From Candidatus Thorarchaeota archaeon (GTDB lineage: Archaea > Asgardarchaeota > Thorarchaeia > Thorarchaeales > Thorarchaeaceae): a stretch of 32,000 bases of DNA. Of this stretch, positions 1,566 to 15,914 are shown piece after piece. The stretch's first letter is position 1; each line of letters opens with the position of its first letter. The position numbers and the translations under genes were made by a program. A model generated the notes under the pieces. That model was not told the DNA's origin. It saw only the letters and a list, made by a program, of their open reading frames with translations, and searched no databases. Where the stretch lies: positions 1 through 32,000 of the forward strand of contig PRDJ01000018.1 in assembly GCA_003345555.1 (NCBI GenBank), read 5' to 3'.

Positions 1566-2807
1566 CTAAACGACAGCATGACCTATCAGTCGCCACTTAT
1601 TCTCGACCCTTCGACCTATGGCTATGCGCTGGCCTTTCTCTGCACAGACTGGTCTTTTCAACTCGACCTCTATCTGTTCACCATGCAACCTCGTGATTAC
1701 CCCTACAGTGGCCGCGGTTCCTACCACAAGCATCAGCTGTTCATTCAGCTTGAGATTCTCAATTTCTTGCTTGGACTCAGTTCCTACGAGTCTCTGCATC
1801 AGCTGAGGCTGTATCATCATCTTGGATAGTGTCTTGGGCATTTTGCCTGCGTTGCCGACCACGCTGCCCACGAGTCTGTCTGCTCGTGTGAATGCAGGGT
1901 CCAACGAAGTCCTGACTCCTATCAACCCTCCCGGTCGGGCTTCTTGAAGTTCGTTTCCACTGCCAGAATGGAGGCTCACGATTTTTGTTTTTATCGGGTT
2001 GAATCCCTTTTCTGTCTTGTAACCCGGCGCGATTTCTATATCATCACCGACCCTAAGTGCGCCTTCAACTATTGAGCCCCCAACTACTCCGCCCTTGAGG
2101 TCTTGGGGTAACGTTCCGGGCGGGTTCACCTCGAACGATCTGGCCACAAGCATCTTAGGTGGCAGAGAGCCATCCCTGTCTGGCGTCGGGATTACTTGTT
2201 CGATTGTCTGAACAAGAAGATCCATGTTGGCCGCGAACACTGCTGAGACCGGAATAATCGGTGCATTTTCCACCGAGGTGCCCTTGATGAAGTCCTTAAT
2301 CTGCTTGTAGTGCTTTCTGGCCTGTTCAGGTGTAAGGAGCTCAATCTTATTCTGTACAATAACGATGTTCTTGACACCCACGATTTCGAGAGCATGAAGA
2401 TGCTCTGCTGTCTGTGGCATGGGACACGGCTCATTCGCGGCAATGACAAGGATGGCGCCGTCCATCAGACTTGCGCCGCTGAGACACGTTGCCATTAGCG
2501 ATTCGTGACCGGGGCTGTCAACGAACGATATCTCTCTAAGAACCTCGAGCTCTCCTCCACACTTCGGACATCGCCCGTCCTTTGCTAGATGAGCAGTAGT
2601 GTACGCATCGGGCTCAGGACAGCTTGTACACTTCATGGTTACAGTGGCAGCATAGCCGAGTTTGATTGATATTCCTCTCTTTATCTCGTCAGAGTGGCGG
2701 TCTGTCCATTCTCCTGTTAGGCACTGTACTAGCGTTGTCTTACCATGGTCAACGTGGCCAAGTGTGCCGATGTTGACTTCACTCTGACCTTCGTATTTTC
2801 TGGGCAC
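1566..2807 (-). CDS. eif2g: Translation initiation factor aIF2 gamma subunit
   Basis: [18 protein letters not shown], zinc knuckle CTSC/CPKC, DSPGHE, QNKIE; C-terminal WRLIG. Confidence 0.97.
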
Positions 2808-2944
2808 CTGTTATTCACATCCGACTATGCCTTTCTCTTACACAGAGGGGCTTCATCTACTCCTAATATGAAGTCTATGGTCTTGCTCACTGATTGTATC
2901 AAGAAGCCAGAACAAGACTGTCTATCAAGACTTGAAAGACCCGA

Positions 2945-3328
2945 TTAAGCTGTCTTCATCACGAGTTCTTCTAGCGGCTTAGTGCCCTTCTCCTCTACCC
3001 GTACGTTCACTTGGGAGACTGCGGTGCTCAATTCCTTGCCGCGAACAGTCTTGCGTCGGCGGTCGCCCGACCTCTTGGACCTGAAACCGGGTGGTCCGTG
3101 TAACAGCACTCTCTTCCGGCCGCTGCCATGTACGTCTGGGCGTATCGGGAATCCAGCCGCGTCACTGCCGCCCGTTATCTTGAGCTTGTAACCAGGCAGG
3201 CCTAGGGCGTCCCCCTCCACGATATCACCGACCTTCTTGCCAACAAGATAGTTGGTTTTGGTGTCATCAAGTTCGTATTGGATGGCTTTCCCTGTTTCTG
3301 GGGTTGAGATGACAAGTTTGAATGGCAA
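2945..3328 (-). CDS. rps6e: 30S ribosomal protein S6e (eS6)
   Basis: FKLVIS, LKITGGSDAAGFP, RRRKTVRG motifs; start placed at TTG 3328 (LPFKLVIS) because the track's 17-aa extension to 3379 does not resemble eS6. Confidence 0.93.
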   Translation of the reverse strand: MPFKLVISTPETGKAIQYELDDTKTNYLVGKKVGDIVEGDALGLPGYKLKITGGSDAAGFPIRPDVHGSGRKRVLLHGPPGFRSKRSGDRRRKTVRGKELSTAVSQVNVRVEEKGTKPLEELVMKTA

Positions 3329-3536
3329 CTGCAATATCGCCTGCTCGAAGTTATGCTGAGATGCCCACGACATGGGCACCGGCGCATCTCAACTGGTCAC
3401 ACTTTATGAGGGTTTTGGTCGGGCTGAGCATGAGAGAGATACCTCGGCAAGAATGGGACCGTCCTCTTACACAACTGTTATAATAGGCTCCACTTTCCGG
3501 GCCTTCCAGAGCCCGACTGGCGTGCCGTGATGCATC

Positions 3537-4706
3537 ATGGATCCTCTTACAGTCATTGAGATACTGGCCGTTATCTACATCGCAATCTATATTGTTGTTC
3601 AAGCCATAGGGGTTGAGAAGTTCAGTTCCAGGGGCATCGAAGCAGGCGCACCGTTCTTCATAATGATAAAGACCAAGAGGCTAAACGCATTCCTGACGAG
3701 GCTGGGTAAGAAGTTTCCTCGGGCTTTCTTCAACTTGGGTGTCGTCATCGCATTCGGCGGTATGGCGTTTGGTTTCTGGATGTTTGGTGAGAATCTACTA
3801 CGCTTCTTCATTCAGCCCGAAACAGCAGGCGGCGTTGTTCCCGTGATACCAGGCGTGACGGTAACGGGTCTTCCTCTGGTATACATGTTGATTGGACTTG
3901 CTGTGGCACTGATCACCCACGAGTTCGCCCATGGTCTTGCATCAGCCAAGGAGAACATACCACTCAAAAGCTCAGGTCTGATGTTTCTCTTTGTTCTATT
4001 TGGGGCTTTCGTAGAACCTGACGAAGAAATCATGGAAAAGCAATCGACTCCGCAATCTCGAATGCGGCTACTTGCTGCCGGTGCATACTCGAACTTGATT
4101 TTCGCATTCATTGTCCTGCTGTTGATGACCAACTTCTATTCGCTAATGTCAATAGGATTCAATCCTCCGAGCGGAGCATACATCTATGACACAGTCCCGG
4201 GCACTCCAGGCGGCGAGTCCCTGCAAGTTGGCGATGTGATAATCGGTCTGAATGCGACCACGATTGAGAAGTGGTCTGATGTCTCTGTGTTCCTGTACAA
4301 CGCCTCTGCTGGAGCGCTTGTCATAATACACACGCTAAGGGGTCCTGTCGATATCCATTTGGCTGCGAATCCGAGTAACGCATCAAAGGGGTACATAGGG
4401 GTCTATGGAGCTGACTATTGGGAACCCAAACCGGGCTGGAGTTGGATACCCTTCGGTCCAATGTTTGCTTTCCATTCGCAGCAGATTCTACTCTGGTCAT
4501 TCGTTATTCTCTTCTCCGTAGCTCTATTCAATCTGCTTCCTATCCCTGCACTAGACGGAGACAAGCTCCTTTCGAACGCGCTTAGCCTGAAGATAAAGAG
4601 CAAGAGGACGCTTATGGCAATCATGTGGCCCATGAGAATTGCCGCCGTATCAGTCATCGTCCTCAGCATAGTTCTCTCCTTATGGTTCGGCAAAGGTCTG
4701 TTCTAG
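3537..4706 (+). CDS. Site-2 protease family (M50) membrane metalloprotease with PDZ-like domain
   Basis: HEFAH zinc motif, GAFVEPDEE, NLLPIPALDG third ligand, multiple hydrophobic segments, GDVII PDZ-like insert. Confidence 0.93.
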   Translation: MDPLTVIEILAVIYIAIYIVVQAIGVEKFSSRGIEAGAPFFIMIKTKRLNAFLTRLGKKFPRAFFNLGVVIAFGGMAFGFWMFGENLLRFFIQPETAGGVVPVIPGVTVTGLPLVYMLIGLAVALITHEFAHGLASAKENIPLKSSGLMFLFVLFGAFVEPDEEIMEKQSTPQSRMRLLAAGAYSNLIFAFIVLLLMTNFYSLMSIGFNPPSGAYIYDTVPGTPGGESLQVGDVIIGLNATTIEKWSDVSVFLYNASAGALVIIHTLRGPVDIHLAANPSNASKGYIGVYGADYWEPKPGWSWIPFGPMFAFHSQQILLWSFVILFSVALFNLLPIPALDGDKLLSNALSLKIKSKRTLMAIMWPMRIAAVSVIVLSIVLSLWFGKGLF

Positions 4707-4829
4707 TCGGAGCAGGTTCGATTTGCCGGTGACGTGATTCAACAGGCAATGAGCTCAGCTCGCGGGAAATCGCCCGATGACTAATCTTAACTGCTGATGC
4801 TGCCTAGCCCCTCCGCCAGAGTGGTCCAG

Positions 4830-5759
4830 ATGCAGTCCATATGTTCGAAGTGCAACCAGCCCGCCGTGTACCTCAGGCAATACACTTCAGAATCCCTCTG
4901 CAAATCCTGCTTGGTAAAGACCACTGTGGAACGAGTGAGGCGGAACATAAACAAGAGCCAAATGCTGAAAGAAGACGACCGAATTGTTGTTGGTGTATCC
5001 GGGGGCAAGGACAGTGCCACACTTCTAGATACACTCTTCAGAATTGAAAAGGACTTCCCGCAGGCCGAACTGATTCCTGTGCTAATCGATGAGGGCATAG
5101 AAGGTTATAGAGACAAGGGACTCGAAACCGCCCGCCAATTGACATCATCCTTGGGCCTCGAGCTCGAGATTCGTACGTTCAAGGATCTTTATGGTCACAC
5201 GCTGGATGACATCATCCGCCTGCGACCTGCGGATTCTAATGGGGCATGCACATACTGCGGTGTGCTCAGGCGGCGTGCTCTGAACACTGCGGCACTGGAG
5301 CTCGAAGCTGACGTTGTTGCCACGGGCCACAACATGGATGACGAGGCTCAGACAATACTGATGAATGTCATAAGGGGTGACAGTCAGAGGATTGTTCGGA
5401 CAAACAGACCACGCGATCATTCCATCAAAGGATTCGTGCCGAGGGTAAAGCCCCTCAGTGAGCTGTCGACCAGAGACACAGTTGTTTATGCCTATCATGT
5501 TGGACTGCCATACCACGACATTCCTTGTCCGTACGCCAGCGAAGCACTTCGCAACGACCTGAGATTGTTTCTGAACGAGATGGAGCACAAGCGGCCGGGC
5601 ACTCTACTTGCCATTCTGCATTCGGGTGAGACGATGTCAGAAGCAATGGAGCACCAAGAGGGCGTCTCGGACGCCACAGTGTGTGAGAGTTGTGGTGAGC
5701 CTGCTTCTTCCAGATTGTGTAAAGTGTGCGCCATACTTCAGGAAATAGAAGGGTGGTAA
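4830..5759 (+). CDS. TtuA/Ncs6-family tRNA 2-thiolation protein (TIGR00269-like)
   Basis: N-terminal CSKC/CKSC, PP-loop SGGKDS, CTYC, TGHNMDD, CPY, C-terminal CESC/CKVC; start ATG 4830 preferred to 4797. Confidence 0.9.
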   Translation: MQSICSKCNQPAVYLRQYTSESLCKSCLVKTTVERVRRNINKSQMLKEDDRIVVGVSGGKDSATLLDTLFRIEKDFPQAELIPVLIDEGIEGYRDKGLETARQLTSSLGLELEIRTFKDLYGHTLDDIIRLRPADSNGACTYCGVLRRRALNTAALELEADVVATGHNMDDEAQTILMNVIRGDSQRIVRTNRPRDHSIKGFVPRVKPLSELSTRDTVVYAYHVGLPYHDIPCPYASEALRNDLRLFLNEMEHKRPGTLLAILHSGETMSEAMEHQEGVSDATVCESCGEPASSRLCKVCAILQEIEGW

Positions 5760-5762
5760 GGA

Positions 5763-6464
5763 GTGGCCAAGAAACCCGAAATCCTTCATGAGCCAAGGAT
5801 TATCGAGTACGGGACGAATCGCTGGGAACTGCTTGCTGCTTTAAGGTCTAGAGCTCTTGAAACCATGGAAGCGCTTGAGTCTGTGTCTTTGAAGCCCTTT
5901 GCCTACGGATCGATTGCGCGCGGGGATGTGAGTCCCTCATCTGATATTGACGTGGTGATACCATACCCGATATCCAGCTATAAACTTGAAACAGTTCTTC
6001 CGTCACCCATCAGAAGGGAGCTTGCCCAAGCTACTCCGTCAATGGTTCTGAAGGGACATATCTATATTCAAGATGGTGTGTGCGTGAGTTTTCCGATCTT
6101 CAAGATGCGTCAGAGGGAATTTGAGTTCTACAAGTGGGGTGGCCAGGTTGACAGCCAGCAGATACAGAACGAGATTCGGGTCTCGGGTGTTGACAAGAGG
6201 CTGCTCTTGATTGAGCCGACTCCCACTGGTCATAGGGAGAGTGGCGTTGTCGGCCACGAGAGCGAAGTTGCGAAGAAACTGTCCGTAAGTCTAGGCATAG
6301 CACAGGAGAGAGTTCGAGTCCTCACGAGAAGAGACGCTATTGGCAGAACGGGTATCTACAGGACCCACGTCCTTGCCGATACAGAAGGCTTCGAGGAGAC
6401 TGCGAAAACACTGATGGACACAGACCCGGCATTGCGCAGGACAGTCGGAAGACGAGAGAGGTAG
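5763..6464 (+). CDS. Archaeal minimal nucleotidyltransferase-domain protein (COG2413-like)
   Basis: YGSIARGDV..SSDIDVV Pol-beta superfamily motif; GVDKRLLLIEP and ERVRVLTRRD..GRTG segments typical of this archaeal family. Confidence 0.82.
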   Translation: MAKKPEILHEPRIIEYGTNRWELLAALRSRALETMEALESVSLKPFAYGSIARGDVSPSSDIDVVIPYPISSYKLETVLPSPIRRELAQATPSMVLKGHIYIQDGVCVSFPIFKMRQREFEFYKWGGQVDSQQIQNEIRVSGVDKRLLLIEPTPTGHRESGVVGHESEVAKKLSVSLGIAQERVRVLTRRDAIGRTGIYRTHVLADTEGFEETAKTLMDTDPALRRTVGRRER

Positions 6465-7589
6465 GTGCAGCCAATGGCCCGTGCTATCAAGCAGATTGCT
6501 GGGGATTCGCTTCTTGTCGGAAAGCTTCCTATGGGCTGCAGGCTGTGCGCCAAGGGATCAAAGATGGTACTCTTTGTGACTGGCCTGTGTGACAGCACGT
6601 GCTATTACTGTCCTCTATCCATAGAGAAGGCTGGTAAGGATGTCACGTTCGCCGATGAGATCCCTGTTCTCTCTGATAGCGACGTAGTCTCCGAATTAGA
6701 TGCTATTGGCGCTAAAGGATCGGGGTTCAGTGGCGGCGATCCACTCTGTAGAGTTGAACGGACTCTGCATTACCTCAAGCTGCTCAAGTCCGTCCCTACG
6801 CCTGCTTTCCACATTCATTTGTATACCAGCAAATGCAATGTTGACAAAGCAACGCTGAAGAAACTTAGGAACGCCGGCCTAGACGAAATCAGGTTTCACC
6901 CACAAACAGATGACTGGACTGGCGTCGAGAATGCAGTGGCCACTGGAATCAACGTAGGCTTGGAGGTCCCGGCTATCCCTGGCACCGCTGATTGGCTTCA
7001 AGCTCTGGCAATGAGAGCCGAGGAGATTGGCGTATCCTTCATGAATATCAATGAGCTCGAAGCAAGTGAATCCAACTTCCAGCGCATAGCAGCTCTTGGA
7101 ATGAGGCTTGGGAGCATGGACGCATCTAGCGTGGCAGGAAGCAGAGAAACCGCAAAGGAAGTCATGGAGTGGGGAACGCAAAACCTGTCCAAGCTCTCCC
7201 TCCATTACTGTTCCGCCCGGTTTAAAGATGCCATACAAATGCGCAATCGGCTGGAACGGCGATTGAAAAGAACTCGTCGACCTTTCGAGGAACGTGACGA
7301 TTCAGATCCACTGTTGATTCTGGGTGTCGTAAGAGCGCCGCATGGCCAGCGCCTAGACATGCCCGCACTTTCCTCTATACAGGATGCTTTGAGGTCATAC
7401 TTCGACGTTCCGTCCCGTCTCATGAACGTAGACACCAAAAGGATGCGAATTGAGATTGCGCCATGGGTCTTGACAGAAATAGCCGGCGAACTTAGAAGGA
7501 CCGTGAAGCAAGGTTTCGAGATTGAGGTGGGCATCGTGCATGAGTACCCCACGTGGGATAGGCTCCAGACGCTTTTCAGCCCTCTCTGA
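6465..7589 (+). CDS. Uncharacterised archaeal radical SAM protein (COG2108-like)
   Basis: GCRLCAKGSKMVLFVTGLCDSTCYYCP containing CxxxCxxC; SGGDP; DEIRFHP; NINELE. Confidence 0.88.
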   Translation: MQPMARAIKQIAGDSLLVGKLPMGCRLCAKGSKMVLFVTGLCDSTCYYCPLSIEKAGKDVTFADEIPVLSDSDVVSELDAIGAKGSGFSGGDPLCRVERTLHYLKLLKSVPTPAFHIHLYTSKCNVDKATLKKLRNAGLDEIRFHPQTDDWTGVENAVATGINVGLEVPAIPGTADWLQALAMRAEEIGVSFMNINELEASESNFQRIAALGMRLGSMDASSVAGSRETAKEVMEWGTQNLSKLSLHYCSARFKDAIQMRNRLERRLKRTRRPFEERDDSDPLLILGVVRAPHGQRLDMPALSSIQDALRSYFDVPSRLMNVDTKRMRIEIAPWVLTEIAGELRRTVKQGFEIEVGIVHEYPTWDRLQTLFSPL

Positions 7590-8678
7590 TCAATCGCCTA
7601 TTCTGAATCTGAGGATCGCCGCGATTCCTCCGAGGCGCTGCAGCTGATCTCCCGCCGGATGATCTGTCGATACCACATTAAACACGGCGCGAGTTTTCTC
7701 ACTGTCGTGAATCAGCTGGTCGAGCCATCTGCGTTGTTCTTCTGTTCCCTCTCTGAGTCTCTTATCCGTTATGAGCAAGTTCTGAATGGCACCGTACTGG
7801 GCTGCCTTCTCGACTTCCTTTTCTCCGTACGCTGCAAGCCCGTCTCCTTTTGCCACGTGGGCGATGAAATCTTCCACCAGTTTCGTCTCGGTTTCAATCT
7901 TCAATTCGGACAATGCATTTGAAATGACGCCCTTGTAGAGTATCTCCTTTGCACCGGGGATCCCAATGGAATTCGCACTCTCGACCACGATTGGAGGCAT
8001 TCCCTTGAAACCCATGGCAGATAGATACTCACTGAAATGCTCTTTGACAAAGCCCGGTCCTGCTATGACTATCAGACCGATTTTGTTCTGTTCGAGCTGG
8101 GAGCGAAGAGCAGTTGCAACTTCGGAGAAGAACTCAGACATTGTGGTGTCGTAGGCCTTTTGGTCTCCTCGCTTACGAGATATGCTCGTGTATATGCTTA
8201 CAGCCTCTCGTATTCCATAATCGGCGACGAGAATTATGTCTGAAGCACCATCTTCTATTGTAACAACAGCACAGATTGGATGGGCTTGAGCACGTTCTGC
8301 TTCCTCGATTCGCTTAAGCAGGAAGTCTGGCCAATGTGTTTTAACGATGGTCAGTATATCCCCCATCTCGATGTTGAAAGTATGATAGGAACCGATACTT
8401 ACGAGGTCGGCGGGACCTTCGAGAATCTTGCCCTTTATCCTAACTCTGTTTGAAAAAGTATGGAATGCGACGTCCTCGACCGACAGCACAAGGGTCATTG
8501 GCTTGCGAATGCTGTCCTGTTTCCGGTCATCCTCATCGCCGACCTTGACTCGTCGAATGGTCCGTGCGATGACGACATCCCCTGCGGCTACGATATTGTA
8601 CAGATGCCATAGGTCATCCAAGGTTTCGACCTTGAGTTCGATTTTGCCCTCCTTCAAGATCCTCTTGATAACCTTCAA
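7590..8678 (-). CDS. pelA: Pelota/Dom34 mRNA surveillance and ribosome rescue factor
   Basis: ETLDDLWHLYNIV, NRVRIKGKI, GSYHT, AGPGF, LGGIAAILRF. Confidence 0.96.
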   Translation of the reverse strand: MKVIKRILKEGKIELKVETLDDLWHLYNIVAAGDVVIARTIRRVKVGDEDDRKQDSIRKPMTLVLSVEDVAFHTFSNRVRIKGKILEGPADLVSIGSYHTFNIEMGDILTIVKTHWPDFLLKRIEEAERAQAHPICAVVTIEDGASDIILVADYGIREAVSIYTSISRKRGDQKAYDTTMSEFFSEVATALRSQLEQNKIGLIVIAGPGFVKEHFSEYLSAMGFKGMPPIVVESANSIGIPGAKEILYKGVISNALSELKIETETKLVEDFIAHVAKGDGLAAYGEKEVEKAAQYGAIQNLLITDKRLREGTEEQRRWLDQLIHDSEKTRAVFNVVSTDHPAGDQLQRLGGIAAILRFRIGD

Positions 8679-8705
8679 CTTGACATCTAGCGCCTATCAT
8701 TTCTA

Positions 8706-10199
8706 TCACAAGAAATAGCTTCCGAACTCGTCAGCATACCTAGCGCTGTTTGGATGGGCCGTCTGAGTATCGAGCCCTCCAATCCCATCGAAGAGAGATT
8801 CTGCCTGCTTGACGTGTTCGGGCAAGACAAACTCCTCCTGATCACGTACTGCAAGGTCTCCCGCAATTCTGACTAGTCCACCGAGTTCGCGAAGCCTGAG
8901 CGTAAGTGCTCCCCTCTGCCCATCTAACCTGTACGCGAAATCCTCGGAAATTCTGAGGATCGACTCAACCGAGCTGGCTGTCAGATGGGGTATTCTACCA
9001 TCTTGTTCGACGGTTTGTGCGATGAACTGCACTGTTTTACTAACATTCTCTGTTGTCTTAGGCATGAATGTAGAGAGCATGATTTCATACCCGTAGCCTC
9101 TGATTCGTGAGCGCAGCGGCGGGAGTATGCTGGGCAAGTCTTCAGGATTGCAGGATGCAAACAGTAGAAAGTCACAGGGGACATCATCCACCCGTACAGC
9201 TGCGCCAGAACTCTGAGGATTATGTCCTGTTATCGGATATTTGCGGTCTTGCATCGCGGTTAGCAAGTGCTTCTGATGAGACCCCAGCGCAGCAATCTCG
9301 TCTACATACAATAAGCCCTCGTGTGCTTCGTGGATGGCCCCTGGAACCACTCTCCTGTAAGCAGGCACACCTAGGGCGTCTGCGCTGCCATAGGGGTCAT
9401 GTTTCACGTCTCCTAATAGCTCGACTTCATTTGCGCCCGTCACCCTAATGAATCGGGGACTGCCGAGCGAAACAAGGACATGTTCCTCGTTTTCGATGAG
9501 GGCTGCGGCTAAAGGGCTGTTCTTCTCAAGGCCTCTGAATACCTGTATCAAATCATGTCCAGCCCTTCTGTATTCTACCTGATGCATAATGTTGTCGACG
9601 TTCTCGCGGCATGTCACAGACATAAGAGCGCGTTCGCCTACGACGTCGAGAGCACGGAATAGGCCATGATACGAACCATCACCAAGCCAGTCACATCTCT
9701 TGGGACTGCCGCAGTCCACACAGGTACTCTGGCTCGGCGAAGAGAAGCTACCACATTTCGGGCACCTATAGCCCATCTTTGATGCGACTTCGAATGGCAT
9801 CTCCTCGGGCCGGATGTAGGTAGAATCAGGAGGGGCGCTCGCGTTTTCTCGTTGCCCCTGGTCGTCGTCAAGTCTTATGACCACAACACGAGGTCTGTCT
9901 GGACGGGATGGGTCGTGTCGGAGCCTTATCTCCTCTCTGGGTTTGGGAAGAAGAGTATAGGCCGCTTCTGCAAGCAGGGACTTCCCGATTCCGGGTGCTC
10001 CGCATAGAAGAACGTGCCTCCGTTGCATCACAGCTGAACGGACCACGGAAACTGCATGGTCTTGACCGATTATCCGCTCAAATGGATCTTTAGGGACGGT
10101 CACTTCTGCAGTGGTTTCCATTACACCCAAGACAGAAGCCAAGTTCGACGTCCTCGCACCTTTCGGTGCGCTAGTTTCCTTGGAGCAAAGTGATAACAC
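8706..10199 (-). CDS. LonB-type AAA+ ATPase lacking both the protease domain and the transmembrane insert, with a zinc-ribbon insert
   Basis: IIGQDHAV, Walker A GAPGIGKS, LLGDVKHDPY, GAIHEAHEGLLYVDEI (Walker B), PPLRSRI, LRLRELGG; ends about 40 aa after the AAA+ lid; CPKC-x10-CVDC insert; start could instead be ATG 10121. Confidence 0.85.
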   Translation of the reverse strand: MLSLCSKETSAPKGARTSNLASVLGVMETTAEVTVPKDPFERIIGQDHAVSVVRSAVMQRRHVLLCGAPGIGKSLLAEAAYTLLPKPREEIRLRHDPSRPDRPRVVVIRLDDDQGQRENASAPPDSTYIRPEEMPFEVASKMGYRCPKCGSFSSPSQSTCVDCGSPKRCDWLGDGSYHGLFRALDVVGERALMSVTCRENVDNIMHQVEYRRAGHDLIQVFRGLEKNSPLAAALIENEEHVLVSLGSPRFIRVTGANEVELLGDVKHDPYGSADALGVPAYRRVVPGAIHEAHEGLLYVDEIAALGSHQKHLLTAMQDRKYPITGHNPQSSGAAVRVDDVPCDFLLFASCNPEDLPSILPPLRSRIRGYGYEIMLSTFMPKTTENVSKTVQFIAQTVEQDGRIPHLTASSVESILRISEDFAYRLDGQRGALTLRLRELGGLVRIAGDLAVRDQEEFVLPEHVKQAESLFDGIGGLDTQTAHPNSARYADEFGSYFL

Positions 10200-10310
10200 T
10201 GTGTAATACGGGCGGCGAAACTTGGGGCGGACCAGTCTCGGGTCTGTTCGAACTAGTCTGATTCTAGACTGTGAATCCCTAGTGACGCACTCAATGTAGA
10301 GTCCGTGCGC

Positions 10311-10389
10311 GAGAGACGCGAAATATGAAACCGGAGAGACGTCGCTCTCGTGTTTTTCCTGAGAGACGAAATTCGGTCTTCTCTCCGGT
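10311..10389. repeat. Three GAGAGACG direct repeats overlapping a 10-bp inverted repeat
   Basis: GAGAGACG at 10311, 10334 and 10361; ACCGGAGAGA (10330-10339) is complementary to TCTCTCCGGT (10380-10389). Confidence 0.7.
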
Positions 10390-10431
10390 CTTCACTAGCA
10401 ATGTCGGAGTTGACATGAGCGGCTCCGGCAA

Positions 10432-11697
10432 CTAATGTTCGAAGTCACCAAAGGTAGCAATCTGAAGGCTGGCTGGTTTGCTCTCGATGTCTGCGACGGC
10501 TGCGCCGATAATGAGCCGCATCTGCTTTGTGGCGGCCATATCGACCAATCGCTGTGTCACGACACCATCAAACACAACAGCATCGACGCTGCTTTGCGAT
10601 TCTAGCGTTTTCGCGAGGTCTGCAACCCCACATTCCACCAGAACCTCCCTATTCTTGTTGAATAACACAGCTTTGAAAGACTCCTTGATTTGAGGTATCT
10701 TGGCGAGGAAAACTTGGTCGACTTGTGGTACGGCCCGCTGATGTCCTCTGTTTGGCCTCGGAGGCGCTTTCGGCGGTTCTACTTTCTTCTCCTCAGTTCG
10801 ATGCACTTCCTCTTTTCGGCTCTCCTCTTTTCTGGGTGGCCTTGGTGACCTCCTGAAAAATGACCTCTTCTTGGGCGGAGCGGCCGCTTTCGAGTCACTG
10901 ACAAGAGCTAATGCCTGTTCAGCCGGTATCTTAGTCTGCAGAGCCTTCAGGAGTTCTGGGCGCGCGAGTTCCTCCACTTCCTTGCCTTCCGGAGCTCGTG
11001 CGATATAATCCACTTTTGCGACCTGCATTAGTTCTCTGAGTATGAGGTCTCCTCCCCGGTCCCCATCAAGAAAAGCAACAATGGTCTTCCCGGACTTTCT
11101 GGTAAGTTCTGATACGGACTTAGGAACATGAGTTCCCTCAACAGCTACAGTGTTTTCGATACCGCTCTTCATGAGGTTAATGACATCTGCTCTACCCTCG
11201 ACGATGATTATCTCGTCGCTTTCAGTAAGCTCAGGTCCTGCAGGAAGGTTCTCAGGGCCGAACTTGGCTACGGTTTTCTTCTTGCCGGCGGTGACTGCAC
11301 TTGTAATCTCTTCTGTGCCAGGAGCGATTTCTTCTTCCCAACCCTTGAGGATGCTTATTGCTCTGCTAACGACCCTTCTGCGCTTTGCCCCTCTTATGTC
11401 CTCAAGCTTCTCAAGAGTGACTTTCGCAGTGCATGGACCGACTCTGTCTACAGTCTCAAGTGAGGCTGCTAACATCGCAGTAGCTGTCTTGTTCAATGAG
11501 ACCGGTATTACTATCTCTCCTTTGCTCATTCCACCCTCGGACTTGACAGCAATCTGAATTCTTCCTACTCGTCCTGTACGCTGAAGCTCACGAAGGTCGA
11601 GATCCTCGCCCAGAAGCCCCTCTGTCTGACCGAATATCGCTCCTACCACATCCGGCTTGTCAACGACTCCTTCAATCTCTATCTTTGCCCTTATCAC
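10432..11697 (-). CDS. dnaG: Archaeal DnaG (TOPRIM primase-like, exosome-associated)
   Basis: GVVDKPDVVGAIFGQTEGLLG, GRVGRI, IIVEGRADV, FLDGDRGG, C-terminal FDGVVTQRLVD; true start probably upstream (see findings). Confidence 0.95.
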   Translation of the reverse strand: MIRAKIEIEGVVDKPDVVGAIFGQTEGLLGEDLDLRELQRTGRVGRIQIAVKSEGGMSKGEIVIPVSLNKTATAMLAASLETVDRVGPCTAKVTLEKLEDIRGAKRRRVVSRAISILKGWEEEIAPGTEEITSAVTAGKKKTVAKFGPENLPAGPELTESDEIIIVEGRADVINLMKSGIENTVAVEGTHVPKSVSELTRKSGKTIVAFLDGDRGGDLILRELMQVAKVDYIARAPEGKEVEELARPELLKALQTKIPAEQALALVSDSKAAAPPKKRSFFRRSPRPPRKEESRKEEVHRTEEKKVEPPKAPPRPNRGHQRAVPQVDQVFLAKIPQIKESFKAVLFNKNREVLVECGVADLAKTLESQSSVDAVVFDGVVTQRLVDMAATKQMRLIIGAAVADIESKPASLQIATFGDFEH

Positions 11698-11760
11698 GTA
11701 CTTAGCAGTACTTTGGTCAAAATCTGTCCCTATTTCGATACACTTCTCCTATTCTCTACT

Positions 11761-12420
11761 GCCTAGTCCCCTCCTCTGATGAGTCTGGCAGTTCCGGCCA
11801 GCCGATGCCTCATTGACCTGAGATTCTCATTCAAGGTCTGCAGCGTATTGATACTTCAGCAGAGACTCTGAGTCCTGCCTTTACTTCCGTAAAGATGATT
11901 GAGACACAGATTGTGATTGGATGAGTGATAACGGTCGTAAGGCCCATTTGGCGAATTGTTGCCGGCTCAGGCTCCTATCAGAGCCAAGGGCCCACGGCGC
12001 ATATGATGTGATGATTTGATGATATGGAAAGCTGAAGCTAGTTCAGCACTACTTGAAGCAAGTTCCGAATGCATCGTATATGAACGTGTCGCTGGTGGAC
12101 ATGAGAACAGGCGACAAGCCTAATAGCCTTCTAGGCTATTATCTCAATGTTCAGCAGAAGCAACACCGTGGATTCTGTACAGAACCTCGGTTAGCGACTG
12201 TTTGAACAATGACCTGCCAAACACCATATGGACGAGCCACAACGGACCCGTATGATGTGGATGTTCATCCCAAGATGAATTCGGGTCACCTTGGTATCGT
12301 ATATTGGCAGGCGGGTCGATGCCACTCAAGGTCCTTGCACGAGGCAGCTCAGCTGAGCCGGACACACGGTCCGATGCCGTGAGGTTGGGTGTTTGTGTAA
12401 TCAGGGCACAGGCATCGGCC
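11761..12420. ncRNA. Candidate structured non-coding RNA region, family not identified
   Basis: About 750-nt gap with no credible ORF and at least nine stems including nested ones; no canonical RNase P or SRP signature recognised by eye. Confidence 0.3.
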
Positions 12421-12498
12421 ACCTTCTTCCATCTTCAAGTGCAACTCCTGAAACCACAGAACTGTTTAAGACACAGGATTTCGCCGCTACTTTAGTCC

Positions 12499-13416
12499 AT
12501 GACAAGTGTCGATCCACATCCTGACTTCGTTAGGGCCGGTCGCATTGCAGCTAGAGTGCTGTCAGAGGTAGTCGAGAAGGTCAAGCCGGGAGAGAAGATT
12601 CTAACTATATGTAATCTTGCTGAGAAGAAGATACTTGATTACGGCGGCGGGTCGGCAGGCATTGCTTTTCCATGCAACGTTTCACTGAATCAGCAAGCTG
12701 CACACTATACCAGTCCGTACGGAGACACGTCGGTGCTGCCTGAGAAAGGTCTTGTGAAAGTAGACCTAGGTGCTCAAGTCAATGGCCACATCTCAGACAC
12801 GGCAGTCACAGTCGACCTTGACGGTTCTTTCCAGCGGTTTGTGAGCGCGACAGAGGAAGCACTGGATGCTGCTATCGCCGCGATAAGACCTGGAATCAGC
12901 TTGGGTGATGTGGGGGCAATCATAGAGCGAGCGATAAGAAAGCACGGCCTAAGGCCAGTGCATCAGTTGTCAGGTCATCAGCTGAAACCATGGATCCTTC
13001 ATGCTGGCAAGAGCGTACCCAATGTCGGTGTAAGACACAGCGAACGAATCGAGGTGGGCGAGACATACGCTGTAGAGCCATTCTCAACAGATGGTGACGG
13101 CACCGTAAGGAATACCGAAGCTGCTTTCATCTTCTCTAATGTAATGAGCGAGAACCCGAAGGTTGATGGAAAGGCTCGAGAAGTGCTGAACAAGGCTCGT
13201 CAGAGATTCGGCACTCTTCCTTGGGCCTCCCGGTGGCTTCACGAGAGTTCCTTTGACGTTGTTCCAATCATTCGGGCGCTTGTCCGTATTGGAGCCGTTA
13301 GACAGTACCTTGTCCTTGTTGAAGGCAAGAACGGGATGGTTGCACAATCCGAGCACAGTCTATTCGTGAGTGATTATGGCGCCGTAGTAACGACTGCACG
13401 CAACAAACAGGATTGA
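12499..13416 (+). CDS. map: Type II methionine aminopeptidase, paralog 1
   Basis: FPCN..AAHYTSP, KVDLG..GHISDTA, GHQL, YAVEPF, QSEHS; all five metal ligands present. Confidence 0.93.
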   Translation: MTSVDPHPDFVRAGRIAARVLSEVVEKVKPGEKILTICNLAEKKILDYGGGSAGIAFPCNVSLNQQAAHYTSPYGDTSVLPEKGLVKVDLGAQVNGHISDTAVTVDLDGSFQRFVSATEEALDAAIAAIRPGISLGDVGAIIERAIRKHGLRPVHQLSGHQLKPWILHAGKSVPNVGVRHSERIEVGETYAVEPFSTDGDGTVRNTEAAFIFSNVMSENPKVDGKAREVLNKARQRFGTLPWASRWLHESSFDVVPIIRALVRIGAVRQYLVLVEGKNGMVAQSEHSLFVSDYGAVVTTARNKQD

Positions 13417-13520
13417 TGTCGTTTCCTCTTGTATCTTCAGGAATATCATAATGAGCCACCGAAGTTCGCTAATGAAACATCTTAAGAACTGGCGTCGAGG
13501 ACTGGAACGAGGTTATCCCT

Positions 13521-14417
13521 ATGGGTTTGGCTCCTCTGCCGGCTCAGCTTCAGGCGGGAAAGATTGCTTCTCGCGTCCTGAAGGAGACTGTAGATCAAGT
13601 CAAGCCGAGGGCAGGGATACTCAATCTCTGCAGACTTGCTGAAAAGAAGATCATAGAATATGGCGGCAGACCTGCTTTTCCATGCAATATATGTGTCGAC
13701 AATATCGCGGCGCATTACACGTCGCCTCGAGACGATCACTCCGTCATACCAGATTGCGGACTGGTGAAAGTTGACATCGGCGTTCATGTTGACGGGTATA
13801 TCATTGATACTGCAAGAACTATCGATATTGATGGCACTCTTGAGGGATTTGTGTCGGCCACTGATGATGCTCTTGGCGAGGCGATTAGCATGATTGCGCC
13901 CGGAACCCCCCTAAGTGAAGTGGGCGATAGGATTGAGAGGGTAATCAAGACCTATGGCTTAAGACCGGTTAAGGAACTCACGGGGCACAGCATATCGAGA
14001 TACACACTACACGCAGGAAAGACTGTGCCCAATCATAGGACTCACGGAAGCACGCAAGCAGAAGCTGGCGATTGCTATGCAATCGAACCATATGCAACAA
14101 GTGGGTCTGGCATATCAGAAACTAAGAATGCTTTCATCTTCTCAAACACAGGTCTTGACAAGACCCTTGAAGGCATGGCCGAGAAACTCAGACTGCATTT
14201 GAGAGAGAAATACGGGTCTCTTCCCTTTGCTTCCAGATGGGTACAAACCGGGACAAAGGAAATAGATGTATCGGGACTGCTTAGGGTTCTGTTGAGAAAT
14301 AGGGTCATCAGGGCCTACCCTGTCCTAGCAGAGAAGAAGGGACGACCCGTAGCTCAAAGCGAGCATACAATCTTCGTGTCGGAAAAGGGCGCCGTTGTAC
14401 TCAGTCAATCAAACTAG
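13521..14417 (+). CDS. map: Type II methionine aminopeptidase, paralog 2
   Basis: AFPCN..AAHYTSP, KVDIGVHVDGYIIDTA, GHSI, YAIEPY, QSEHT; all five metal ligands present. Confidence 0.93.
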   Translation: MGLAPLPAQLQAGKIASRVLKETVDQVKPRAGILNLCRLAEKKIIEYGGRPAFPCNICVDNIAAHYTSPRDDHSVIPDCGLVKVDIGVHVDGYIIDTARTIDIDGTLEGFVSATDDALGEAISMIAPGTPLSEVGDRIERVIKTYGLRPVKELTGHSISRYTLHAGKTVPNHRTHGSTQAEAGDCYAIEPYATSGSGISETKNAFIFSNTGLDKTLEGMAEKLRLHLREKYGSLPFASRWVQTGTKEIDVSGLLRVLLRNRVIRAYPVLAEKKGRPVAQSEHTIFVSEKGAVVLSQSN

Positions 14418-14788
14418 AAGTTGGACTTGGCTTTCGGTTCTTCCTCTTTGACAATGTAGACGCCCTCTATGGCTGTCAGAGAGCCGCACTTCGGGCACTT
14501 TGTTTCCAGAGGCTTCAGCACGAAATCCCCTTTCTTGAAGTCCCTGATTTCCTTGAAGTCACAAGCCGTGTTGCTGCATCTTATTTCCGTGATCGTGGGC
14601 GGAGGTGGTTTGTGTCCCTTTGGCTGTCCTCTTGCCGTGAGGAGATTGAAGCCGATTGAGATGATGAGAAGTCCGACGAACAACCAAATGAACGACTGAG
14701 GGTCGTTCATTGTCATGAATATGAGTGTTGCTCCCACTACTGAGATGAACAACCCAATTAGCCTAGAGAGTACGCTCATCGTTGACAC
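14414..14788 (-). CDS. Small membrane protein with two transmembrane helices and a C-terminal zinc ribbon
   Basis: Two hydrophobic N-terminal segments, PPPP linker, CSNTAC...FKKGDFVLK...CPKC; stop-start spacing of 1 nt with DUF1512. Confidence 0.75.
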   Translation of the reverse strand: MSTMSVLSRLIGLFISVVGATLIFMTMNDPQSFIWLFVGLLIISIGFNLLTARGQPKGHKPPPPTITEIRCSNTACDFKEIRDFKKGDFVLKPLETKCPKCGSLTAIEGVYIVKEEEPKAKSNF

Positions 14789-14789
14789 C

Positions 14790-15914
14790 TCAGAGACCGA
14801 TTCCCATTGTATTCCCGATTCCCGCGAGCACGATTTTGTCTCCGGGCTTGGTGCGTTTGAGTATAGCCTCCCTGATGCGGTCGATTACATCAGGGATAGC
14901 CTCGAGGACTTTCTTCTGCATTACTCCGACCGCCGCGGCTTCATCCTCCTTGACGACAAAGGCTTCGAGGGCAATGCCATTCTGGGTGGCCGTTTCTTCT
15001 ATCGCGTGTTTCTCTGGACCCGGATCTCCTATCGCCGCTCCAGTGCCCTCCGAGACTCGTCCGAGATCCTCGCCCTCAAGTTTCAAAGCCGCATCTACTG
15101 TGATTATGCGCGTGATTCCCCCGCTATTCTGCTCTACGAGCGTCTTCACGGCGAAACCCGGCTTGCCCACTGTGCCTCCGGGGCCGGTAGCACGCAGAGC
15201 ATACACAGTTCTTCCCTCTACTTGTACGGGGTAGTAGCCGACTTCGCGCCCAATCTCGTTCACGTAGGCGTCAGGGCCCGCTCCGTATTTCCTAGCAAAC
15301 TTGGTTACCACAAGTGGCCCAATGCCGTCACCGATGGGCTTTCCATCGGAGAATGCTTCGACAGAGTCGTAATATGCCTTGGCCATCCTCAATAGATCTG
15401 GCATCTGCATCTGTATCTGCATTATCATAATCTGGCTCCCTGTCTTCTTGCCGAGAAGATAGAAGTGCCTAACAACCCTGAATATCAGTGACAGAACCTG
15501 AGTTACTTCCATGGTGTTCTCCAGGTTCTGGTACGTACTCGTGGTTGCATTGGGGGCCAGCTCTCTCACGAATTCCTGAAACCTGTCTCTTCTATCATCT
15601 AGCAGGTGGTCAAGACGCTTGAGGACTCCTGCTGGATCCAAGTCAACCGGCATGATTGTGAAGAAGTCAAGCCAGCGGTCAATACCTTTGGTGACATCTG
15701 CTTCACTCTTGCCGTATTGCTTGAACGTAGCAATGGCGGAATCTCTGGAATCAATGGACATCTCCTTGAGCTCGATCAGTCCCGACTCAATCTGTTTCAG
15801 CCACTGCCACATTTGGAATTTTGCACCGTAGAGGCTGAATATCAAGATGAAAGCATAGAATGCTATGTTTAGTAGCCAGCTGAACTGGCTAAGATCCACG
15901 CCACCTAGCTGCAT
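14790..15914 (-). CDS. DUF1512 family protein (N-terminal membrane anchor, helical region, C-terminal alpha/beta domain)
   Basis: PVDLDPAGV, VVRHFYLLGKKT, PIGDGIGPLV, GPGGTVG, IITVDAALKLEGE, GAAIGDPGPEK, GIGNTMGI recalled as DUF1512 motifs; map neighbourhood is consistent. Confidence 0.82.
   Translation of the reverse strand: MQLGGVDLSQFSWLLNIAFYAFILIFSLYGAKFQMWQWLKQIESGLIELKEMSIDSRDSAIATFKQYGKSEADVTKGIDRWLDFFTIMPVDLDPAGVLKRLDHLLDDRRDRFQEFVRELAPNATTSTYQNLENTMEVTQVLSLIFRVVRHFYLLGKKTGSQIMIMQIQMQMPDLLRMAKAYYDSVEAFSDGKPIGDGIGPLVVTKFARKYGAGPDAYVNEIGREVGYYPVQVEGRTVYALRATGPGGTVGKPGFAVKTLVEQNSGGITRIITVDAALKLEGEDLGRVSEGTGAAIGDPGPEKHAIEETATQNGIALEAFVVKEDEAAAVGVMQKKVLEAIPDVIDRIREAILKRTKPGDKIVLAGIGNTMGIGL

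Follow-up and report, generated by a model that had tools for sequence, protein, structure and literature searches.

LonX, a protease-less LonB-like ATPase of archaea with a zinc-ribbon insert, an HbYX-like tail, and a conserved dnaG neighbor

Archaeal LonB (PDB: 3k1j/4zpx; TIGR00764; MEROPS S16) combines an AAA+ module with a Ser-Lys protease domain, and a transmembrane hairpin is inserted between the Walker A and Walker B motifs of the module. Here, we describe a relative without hairpin or protease, encoded on the minus strand of a 32,000-nucleotide (nt) stretch of DNA from a Candidatus Thorarchaeota archaeon (GenBank assembly GCA_003345555.1, contig PRDJ01000018.1, positions 1–32,000; hereafter the window). 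LonX is the label used here for this Lon-like gene and its protein, and residues are numbered according to a 471-amino-acid (aa) form. LonX has in common with LonB the AAA+ module, the H-D-P-aromatic pore loop, the lid, and the point of insertion between Walker A and Walker B; it differs in that a zinc-ribbon insert of approximately 165 residues replaces the transmembrane hairpin, the Ser-Lys protease is absent, and an aromatic tail is added. We hold with high confidence that LonX is an active, soluble, protease-less motor of the LonB type. The further proposal that it is a DnaG-linked unfoldase feeding the 20S proteasome, drawn from sequence comparison and gene context, is one that we consider evenly balanced between right and wrong.

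Among unfoldases of the HCLR clade, to which Lon belongs, ClpX and HslU work with a separately encoded peptidase. The C4 zinc domain of ClpX serves adaptors and substrates, and the C-terminal tails of HslU insert into HslV, a homolog of the proteasome beta subunit, and activate it. LonX differs from ClpX and HslU because its zinc domain is internal rather than N-terminal and it has no IGF loop. LonC (MtaLonC; PDB: 4fw9) is, like LonX, a Lon relative that lost half of the machine, but LonC keeps the protease with a dead ATPase, whereas LonX keeps the ATPase without the protease (PMC3391209). The ATPases held to serve archaeal proteasomes, namely PAN, Cdc48, and AMA, are all classical AAA proteins. 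LonX would resemble PAN, Cdc48/VAT, and AMA (PMC3493965) as a ring unfoldase with an aromatic pore loop and a flexible [Y/F]-x tail; it differs in belonging to the Lon clade rather than to the classical AAA proteins, its docking is a prediction, and it has the zinc-ribbon insert instead of the N-terminal coiled-coil/OB or double-psi barrel of PAN and Cdc48. The presence of several HbYX-tailed ATPases per genome fits the "network" model (PMC3493965).

The LonX motor, its insert, and its descent

The lonX coding sequence, assigned from profile and homolog matches, occupies positions 8706–10121 of the window (minus strand, as for all features of the protein given below) and ends with a TGA stop at 8706–8708. 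The longest open reading frame (ORF) spans 8706–10199 from a GTG start, with alternative starts at TTG 10142 and ATG 10121; because homologs begin at ATG 10121 or a few codons upstream, the true start is probably ATG 10121 (471 aa) or TTG 10142 (478 aa) rather than GTG 10199. The 471-aa protein is 100% identical to database entry P0004. Against the LonB equivalog profile TIGR00764, LonX scored 339.8 bits, below the curated cut-off of 516.6 bits, and it covered only positions 5–86 and 173–390 of the 608 in the profile. Profile searches gave no match in LonX to Lon_C, the S16 Ser-Lys protease domain (PF05362). The score against the classical AAA profile PF00004 was 17.6 bits, under its 21.2-bit cut-off, and the best matches were of the Lon/Mg-chelatase type.

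Conservation of the motor motifs was assessed in an alignment of 79 LonX-family sequences from four phyla. Walker A is GAPGIGKS (residues 41–48; 9978–10001), with G41, P43, G44, G46, K47, and S48 invariant, and Walker B (D274-E275; 9297–9302) is likewise conserved. Pore-loop 1, H-D-P-Y-G (residues 241–245; 9387–9401), aligns with H-D-P-F of T. onnurineus LonB, and its aromatic position is Tyr in 78 sequences and Phe in the remaining one. Together with sensor 1, N325, R337, R339, R409, and R411, these motifs are invariant or nearly so, and as a set they look like those of an active protein-threading motor. The insert between Walker A and Walker B (9456–9950) is soluble and contains the zinc ribbon CPKC-x10-CVDC (C120/C123/C134/C137) followed by K141 (9711–9764; Zn_ribbon_3, E = 0.002); all four cysteines are invariant (79/79), as is K141. 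No stretch of LonX reaches the grade of a membrane helix, the highest 19-residue Kyte-Doolittle window being 1.12, whereas the scan of six canonical Asgard LonBs found, in each of them, two windows above 1.6 at the equivalent place. A sequence-only reading of the window had described three minus-strand genes in the order dnaG, Lon-like gene, pelota, with intact Walker A/B and Arg residues, a CPKC-x10-CVDC ribbon in place of a hydrophobic anchor, and 27 nt before pelota with no room for a frameshifted protease; each of these observations was borne out.

The AlphaFold2 model of LonX, built with 52 homologs, has a mean predicted local distance difference test score (pLDDT) of 84, with two loops and residues 448–471 below 50. 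Foldseek matched the model to T. onnurineus LonB with a probability of 1.0 and a template modeling (TM) score of 0.87 normalized to 4zpx, with MtaLonC (4fw9) as the second-best structural match, and the same T. onnurineus protein (3k1j/4zpx) was the best phmmer hit among PDB sequences (E = 2e-83). Identity to it is approximately 50% over LonX residues 223–440 and approximately 45% over residues 3–82. Of the segment between the two Walker motifs, approximately 140 residues cannot be aligned with LonB but are homologous throughout the family. Modeled alone, the insert reached a pLDDT of 78 and gave no significant match in the PDB, with all Foldseek E values above 0.28; VIA-align, run against 48,161 chains, reached a Z of 3.8 at best, with PAS-like and SlyD rows tied, which does not show a new fold.

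The model also bears on the idea that LonX is a nucleic-acid motor acting with a DnaG primase, namely a hexameric helicase or translocase with a zinc ribbon that would supply the template-binding zinc domain absent from archaeal DnaG, comparable with DnaB-DnaG or T7 gp4. The conserved dnaG-lonX operon and the invariance of the ribbon and its following Lys would suit such a role, and MCM, ComM, and RuvB do occur among the structural matches. Those matches are far weaker than that to LonB, however, with TM scores of only 0.2–0.3, and the core is approximately 50% identical to that of LonB, a protein unfoldase, down to the aromatic H-D-P-Y/F pore loop. A helicase would have no use for an HbYX-type tail, and the best-documented role of archaeal DnaG is that of an RNA-binding cap subunit in the exosome (PMC4227792, PMC3672285). 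We therefore regard a helicase-like function as improbable.

A more trivial explanation is that LonX is a local truncation or pseudogene of canonical LonB, for which nothing speaks beyond the missing domains themselves. A word-indexed search returned 7352 matches, and the best 120 of them, from Thor-, Hermod-, and Loki-labeled metagenome-assembled genomes (MAGs), are all 464–536 aa long and 55–82% identical to LonX; more than 120 near-full-length homologs fall in that size range, and close relatives also lack the protease domain. These homologs, their grouping as a single clan apart from LonB, the invariant motifs, the spacer between the lonX stop and the pelota start (8679–8705, exactly 27 nt), and the absence of any Lon_C match in the genome rule out a truncation or a frameshifted protease; of the explanations weighed here, we give this one practically no credence.

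The spread of the two forms was followed in 151 genomes of the Asgard phylum, grouped into families of which f1 is the Thor family, that of this genome, and f7, f19, f27, and f12 are others; these genomes, like the wider sets below, are samples, and anything reported as not found applies to the genomes sampled. Full-length LonX was present in 26/26 f1, 4/5 f7, and 6/6 f19 genomes, plus one f27 genome, and canonical LonB (approximately 650 aa, with transmembrane helices and Lon_C) was found in other Asgard families. Only that f27 genome (G123) had both, a LonB of 650 aa and LonX. In this genome and 37 other f1/f7/f19 genomes, LonX was the sole LonB-type gene found, so that three Asgard families have it as the only Lon-type gene detected. 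ORFs of approximately 800 aa with weak Lon_C matches (E of approximately 1e-9, covering profile positions 108–200 only) occur in 5/26 Thor genomes (G087, G131, G134, G137, and G143) and in most f12 genomes; they encode a different protein, not LonB.

Beyond Asgard, we combined an exhaustive search over representatives at 50% identity with a scan of GTDB species genomes seeded with an Aciduliprofundum member. The scan gave 379 related stretches, the best 80 of which came from Thermoplasmatota (DHVE2, Ferroplasma, Cuniculiplasma, E-plasma, and Methanomassiliicoccales), Altiarchaeota, and Micrarchaeota, and one Korarchaeota member was also found. In all, there are hundreds of homologs of approximately 460–510 aa across Asgard, Thermoplasmatota, Altiarchaeota, Micrarchaeota, and Korarchaeota, and every member from the wider search has two CxxC pairs and no protease domain. 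The protein of the window shares the family features: four invariant cysteines in the insert, a length within this range, no protease, a place in the same clan, and dnaG upstream on the same strand.

In a FastTree phylogeny of the shared core (LG+gamma), the zinc-ribbon forms make up one clan apart from canonical LonB (Shimodaira-Hasegawa-like support 0.997), and, among canonical LonBs, those of Asgard archaea group as a separate clade (0.988). LonX and canonical LonB occur together in Thermoplasmatota, Altiarchaeota, and Micrarchaeota. Because of this coexistence outside Asgard and the separate clan, LonX is, on this tree, an old paralog of LonB. The alternative that LonX is a derived form nested within Asgard LonB was rejected on the same grounds. 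Short LonB-like ATPases (399–469 aa) with neither zinc ribbon nor protease were also noted (P0146, P0151, P0154, P0160, P0170, P0181, P0187, P0195, and P0241); Polycladomyces, a bacterium, is the source of one and Micrarchaeota of another. Their position in the tree is among canonical LonBs, which suggests more than one loss of the protease domain.

The expectation from the first reading that similar proteins might exist in methanogens proved correct: the family is present in Methanomassiliicoccales and is already catalogued, by name only. Automatic cluster names in the ESM Atlas include "LonB like ATP-ase no protease domain" for clusters of the same family, which are 100% archaeal, most commonly from Thermoplasmatota, and approximately 470–520 aa in length, with no function attached. 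Literature searches found no paper on the function, tail, or dnaG linkage of the family and none pairing LonB with HbYX, or LonB with "no protease domain," in archaea; those on Asgard HbYX, on Asgard LonB and the proteasome, and on Lon lacking a protease domain found only unrelated papers. Members occur in the cultured Aciduliprofundum boonei and Cuniculiplasma, as well as in Ferroplasma, Methanoplasma, and Methanomassiliicoccales MAGs, which makes the proposals below testable with recombinant proteins.

The C-terminal tail and the 20S proteasome

LonX had been described at first as stopping right after the lid, which did not hold. The lid is followed by a tail of approximately 25 residues, disordered at a pLDDT below 50 (residues 448–471; 8709–8780), which ends S-Y-F-L-COOH (8709–8720), a motif of the HbYX/Y-Phi type (PMC3493965; PMC8907193). 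HbYX is defined as [LVIMGAPFYW][FY]x at the C terminus, has natural Phe variants that activate, and has a background frequency of approximately 4%; the survey behind this definition was limited to classical AAA proteins (Forouzan et al., 2012; PMC3493965). The LonX end has the sequence of this class, a C-terminal [small/hydrophobic]-[Y/F]-x on a flexible tail. The human 20S proteasome needs Tyr at P3 and favors Phe or Tyr at P2 (Opoku-Nsiah et al., PMC8907193), and the Thor tail motif, read as a pattern of residues, is exactly that preference.

A penultimate Tyr or Phe is found in 179 of the 196 family members counted. Thor-type homologs end [D/S/N]-Y-[F/Y]-[F/L] without exception (120/120: YFF in 104, YFL in 7, YYL in 5, and YYF in 4), Asgard f19 members end L-Y-G (3/3), and f7 members end R-Y-G (3/3). 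The ends are G/S/Y/L-Y-x or M-F-x in Thermoplasmatota (41/41), G/S-Y-x in Altiarchaeota (12/12), and Y-F-A in the single Korarchaeota member. The motif closes a tail of variable length (31–52 residues past the lid) whose linker also varies in sequence, column identity being 0.42 in the tail versus 0.76 in the core. In the background of 1766 ORFs from this genome, 5.1% have a penultimate Phe or Tyr and 2.4% fit the HbYX pattern; a Y-[FY]-x end occurs once, namely in lonX. None of 12 canonical Asgard LonBs has such an end. Within single genomes, the LonX tails look like those of known proteasomal ATPases: PAN ends I-Y-C and Cdc48 G-Y-I in this genome, PAN ends M-F-G and LonX M-F-Q in Methanomethylophilaceae, and Cdc48 ends A-Y-G and LonX S-Y-G in Altiarchaeales. 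The protease ring follows the lid directly in LonB (3k1j), and so the LonX tail would be expected to leave the ring on the face where the protease would sit. Thermoplasmatota members have a second aromatic-rich patch approximately 8–12 residues before the C terminus (e.g., Y-N-Y-W-N-E, Y-Y-F-E-N-E, or H-N-Y-Y), with a Thor counterpart, [Y/F]-G-x, directly preceding Y-F-F; the patch and the C-terminal motif may form a two-part docking element.

For the 20S proteasome, this genome (2.28 Mb, 93% complete) encodes two alpha and two beta subunits, with the pocket residues SP-x-GR, E-Y-A, and the Lys of xKI intact. It yielded no ClpP or HslV and no Lon_C domain, stand-alone or otherwise; the stand-alone Lon protease-domain gene that had been suggested as something to look for was therefore not found. 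The conserved HbYX-like C terminus lends real support to the accompanying suggestion that LonX acts with a protease encoded elsewhere, docking itself remaining a prediction. We judge the chances that LonX docks on the 20S proteasome to be about equal either way. The PAN gene of this genome is split over two contig ends (C63:3–962 and C32:2–202), which is an assembly break and not a break in the gene.

Several observations weigh against docking on the proteasome as the role of LonX. Residues at the motif deviate in places: the penultimate residue of the Thor tail is Phe rather than Tyr, f7 members carry Arg at the Hb position, and the f27 member (G123) ends L-W-N-G, with no penultimate aromatic and with dnaG still upstream. 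Micrarchaeota members lack an aromatic end altogether (16/16), typically finishing in (K/S)-E-(V/I)-(A/R/S/G) or H-I-F, although a 20S proteasome is encoded in their genomes and, in the single genome checked, Cdc48 ends M-Y-R. A prediction that genomes without the aromatic tail would have no 20S proteasome thus failed; the Micrarchaeota end may be a lineage-specific alternative tail. By chance, such ends are expected in 2–5% of proteins, and HbYX-like tails can serve other partners, as does the L-Y-G end of p97, which binds PUB/PUL cofactors. In this genome, HbYX tails are already present on PAN and Cdc48. The adjacency of the proteasome alpha gene and the exosome Rrp41/42 genes, seen in 6/6 LonX genomes checked (this one and five others), would speak for the proposal, but such linkage, the classical exosome-proteasome superoperon, is reportedly general in archaea, a description said to go back to Koonin and colleagues in 2001, and is therefore not specific to LonX.

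The same observations bear on whether LonX needs a protease at all. It could be a stand-alone remodeler or chaperone of DnaG or exosome complexes, with an aromatic tail that regulates the ring or binds a non-proteasomal cofactor. Protease-less AAA+ remodelers are common, the p97 precedent applies here too, and the Micrarchaeota members, with no aromatic end, often retain the linkage to dnaG; the tie to DnaG and the tail thus appear to be separate traits. Set against this, the penultimate aromatic is kept across Asgard, Thermoplasmatota, and Altiarchaeota despite a freely drifting linker, and the tails resemble those of PAN and Cdc48 from the same genomes. On balance, we consider a protease-free remodeler unlikely, although of the alternatives to a proteasomal role it is the one that we take most seriously.

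Linkage to dnaG and a proposed mechanism

The upstream same-strand neighbor of lonX is dnaG (10432–11697, minus strand; NF003108, 475 bits), which encodes a TOPRIM protein and exosome cap subunit. Unbiased clustering of the neighbors at 80 non-Asgard loci (Thermoplasmatota, Altiarchaeota, and Micrarchaeota) produced a single standout, a protein of approximately 440 aa encoded directly upstream on the same strand in approximately 55–57 of the 80, with a gap of −4 to approximately 70 nt. This protein is DnaG (NF003108, 529 bits). Using tblastn, dnaG was detected at 63 of 86 non-Thor lonX loci, and in the Thor family it was present at 24 of the 27 loci whose flank reaches it, at a gap of approximately 120–1450 nt. 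The dnaG-lonX pair is conserved across four phyla; a 2008 study of dnaG context names no Lon-like neighbor (PMC2643942). In the window, the gap is 232–310 nt (10200–10431 lies beyond the longest lonX ORF) versus −4 to 70 nt in other phyla. Because the gap is so much wider here, and up to approximately 1.4 kb in other Thor genomes, lonX-pelota may have its own promoter in this genome. Overall, we think it rather probable that LonX has some functional tie to DnaG.

From these features, we infer ring formation, protein translocation, 20S docking, and a role with DnaG. In the proposed mechanism, LonX would be a soluble hexameric protein unfoldase of the LonB type, with the zinc-ribbon domain at the entrance for substrates, on the face occupied in LonB by the membrane hairpin. 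The insert would select substrates or adaptors. These are suggested to lie in the sphere of DnaG and the RNA exosome, because co-transcription with dnaG is conserved, and could be, for example, proteins bound to RNA under degradation. ATP-driven pore loops would then thread the protein substrate, and the tails would enter the pockets between 20S alpha subunits, open the gate, and pass the unfolded chain on in trans, as PAN, Cdc48, and AMA do.

Taken to its full extent, this proposal would place LonX beside PAN, Cdc48, and AMA as a fourth kind of archaeal proteasome-activating ATPase, one of Lon rather than classical AAA descent. LonX would physically connect DnaG and the RNA exosome with the 20S proteasome, and ribonucleoproteins would have their protein and RNA components degraded together; in Thorarchaeota, it would also be co-expressed with pelota for the clearance of stalled ribosomes. 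We offer this complete version only tentatively and doubt that all of its parts will hold. If it were true, a Lon-derived motor would be a new class of regulator for a proteasome otherwise thought to be served by classical AAA proteins, and it would show how one ATP-dependent protease could become the activator of a different one. It would also give a molecular basis for the long-noted linkage of exosome and proteasome genes in archaea and would connect protein degradation with DnaG, for which the archaeal role, as primase or as exosome subunit, is still debated.

Pelota and the syntenic block

The downstream gene is pelota (aPelota/Dom34; 7590–8678, minus strand; TIGR00111, 288 bits), which begins at a TTG codon (8676–8678). 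It adjoins lonX at a distance of approximately 25–35 nt in 27/27 Thor-family loci searched (26 relatives and the window). In 18-kb regions from 12 Thor genomes of different genera, however, a whole block of approximately 16 kb (1566–15914 in the window) has the same order and orientation in 12/12: eIF2-gamma, S6e, M50 peptidase, TtuA-like, nucleotidyltransferase, radical-SAM, pelota, LonX, DnaG, two methionine aminopeptidases (MetAPs), and DUF1512. Since the entire block is syntenic, the adjacency of pelota by itself carries little weight. LonX is the least conserved protein of the block, with 51–67% identity among these genomes versus 74–91% for eIF2-gamma. Outside the Thor family, pelota lies within 7 kb of lonX at only 1 of 86 loci. 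The proposed conservation of the pelota linkage thus stands within the Thor family and fails beyond it, and the view of pelota as a functional partner is not upheld.

In the Asgard families f7 and f19, lonX is followed by one or two class I S-adenosylmethionine (SAM) methyltransferase genes, with a 4-nt overlap in f7, and in f19 a tRNA-splicing endonuclease gene lies upstream and a LigT-type 2'-5' RNA ligase gene is nearby. The context in f7 and f19 is one of RNA processing, without dnaG or pelota.

These data also address the suggestion that LonX is an unfoldase coupled to pelota, which would extract or degrade nascent chains at stalled ribosomes as an archaeal analog of Cdc48 in ribosome quality control. 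The close spacing, shared orientation, and constant adjacency in Thor genomes are what such a partnership would lead one to expect, and the surroundings are related to translation (eIF2-gamma, S6e, MetAP, fibrillarin/Nop5, and L3/L4). Against it stand the synteny of the block as a whole, in which this adjacency is not specifically preserved, the near absence of pelota from loci elsewhere, and the methyltransferase genes found downstream instead in f7 and f19. A ribosome-rescue unfoldase of this kind therefore seems a poor prospect, and we attach equally little probability to any functional tie between LonX and pelota.

The block also contains two tandem, diverged M24 MetAP-like genes (12499–13416 and 13521–14417 in the window), which are paired in 10 of the 12 Thor genomes; of the two exceptions, one genome has a single copy and the other has none within reach.

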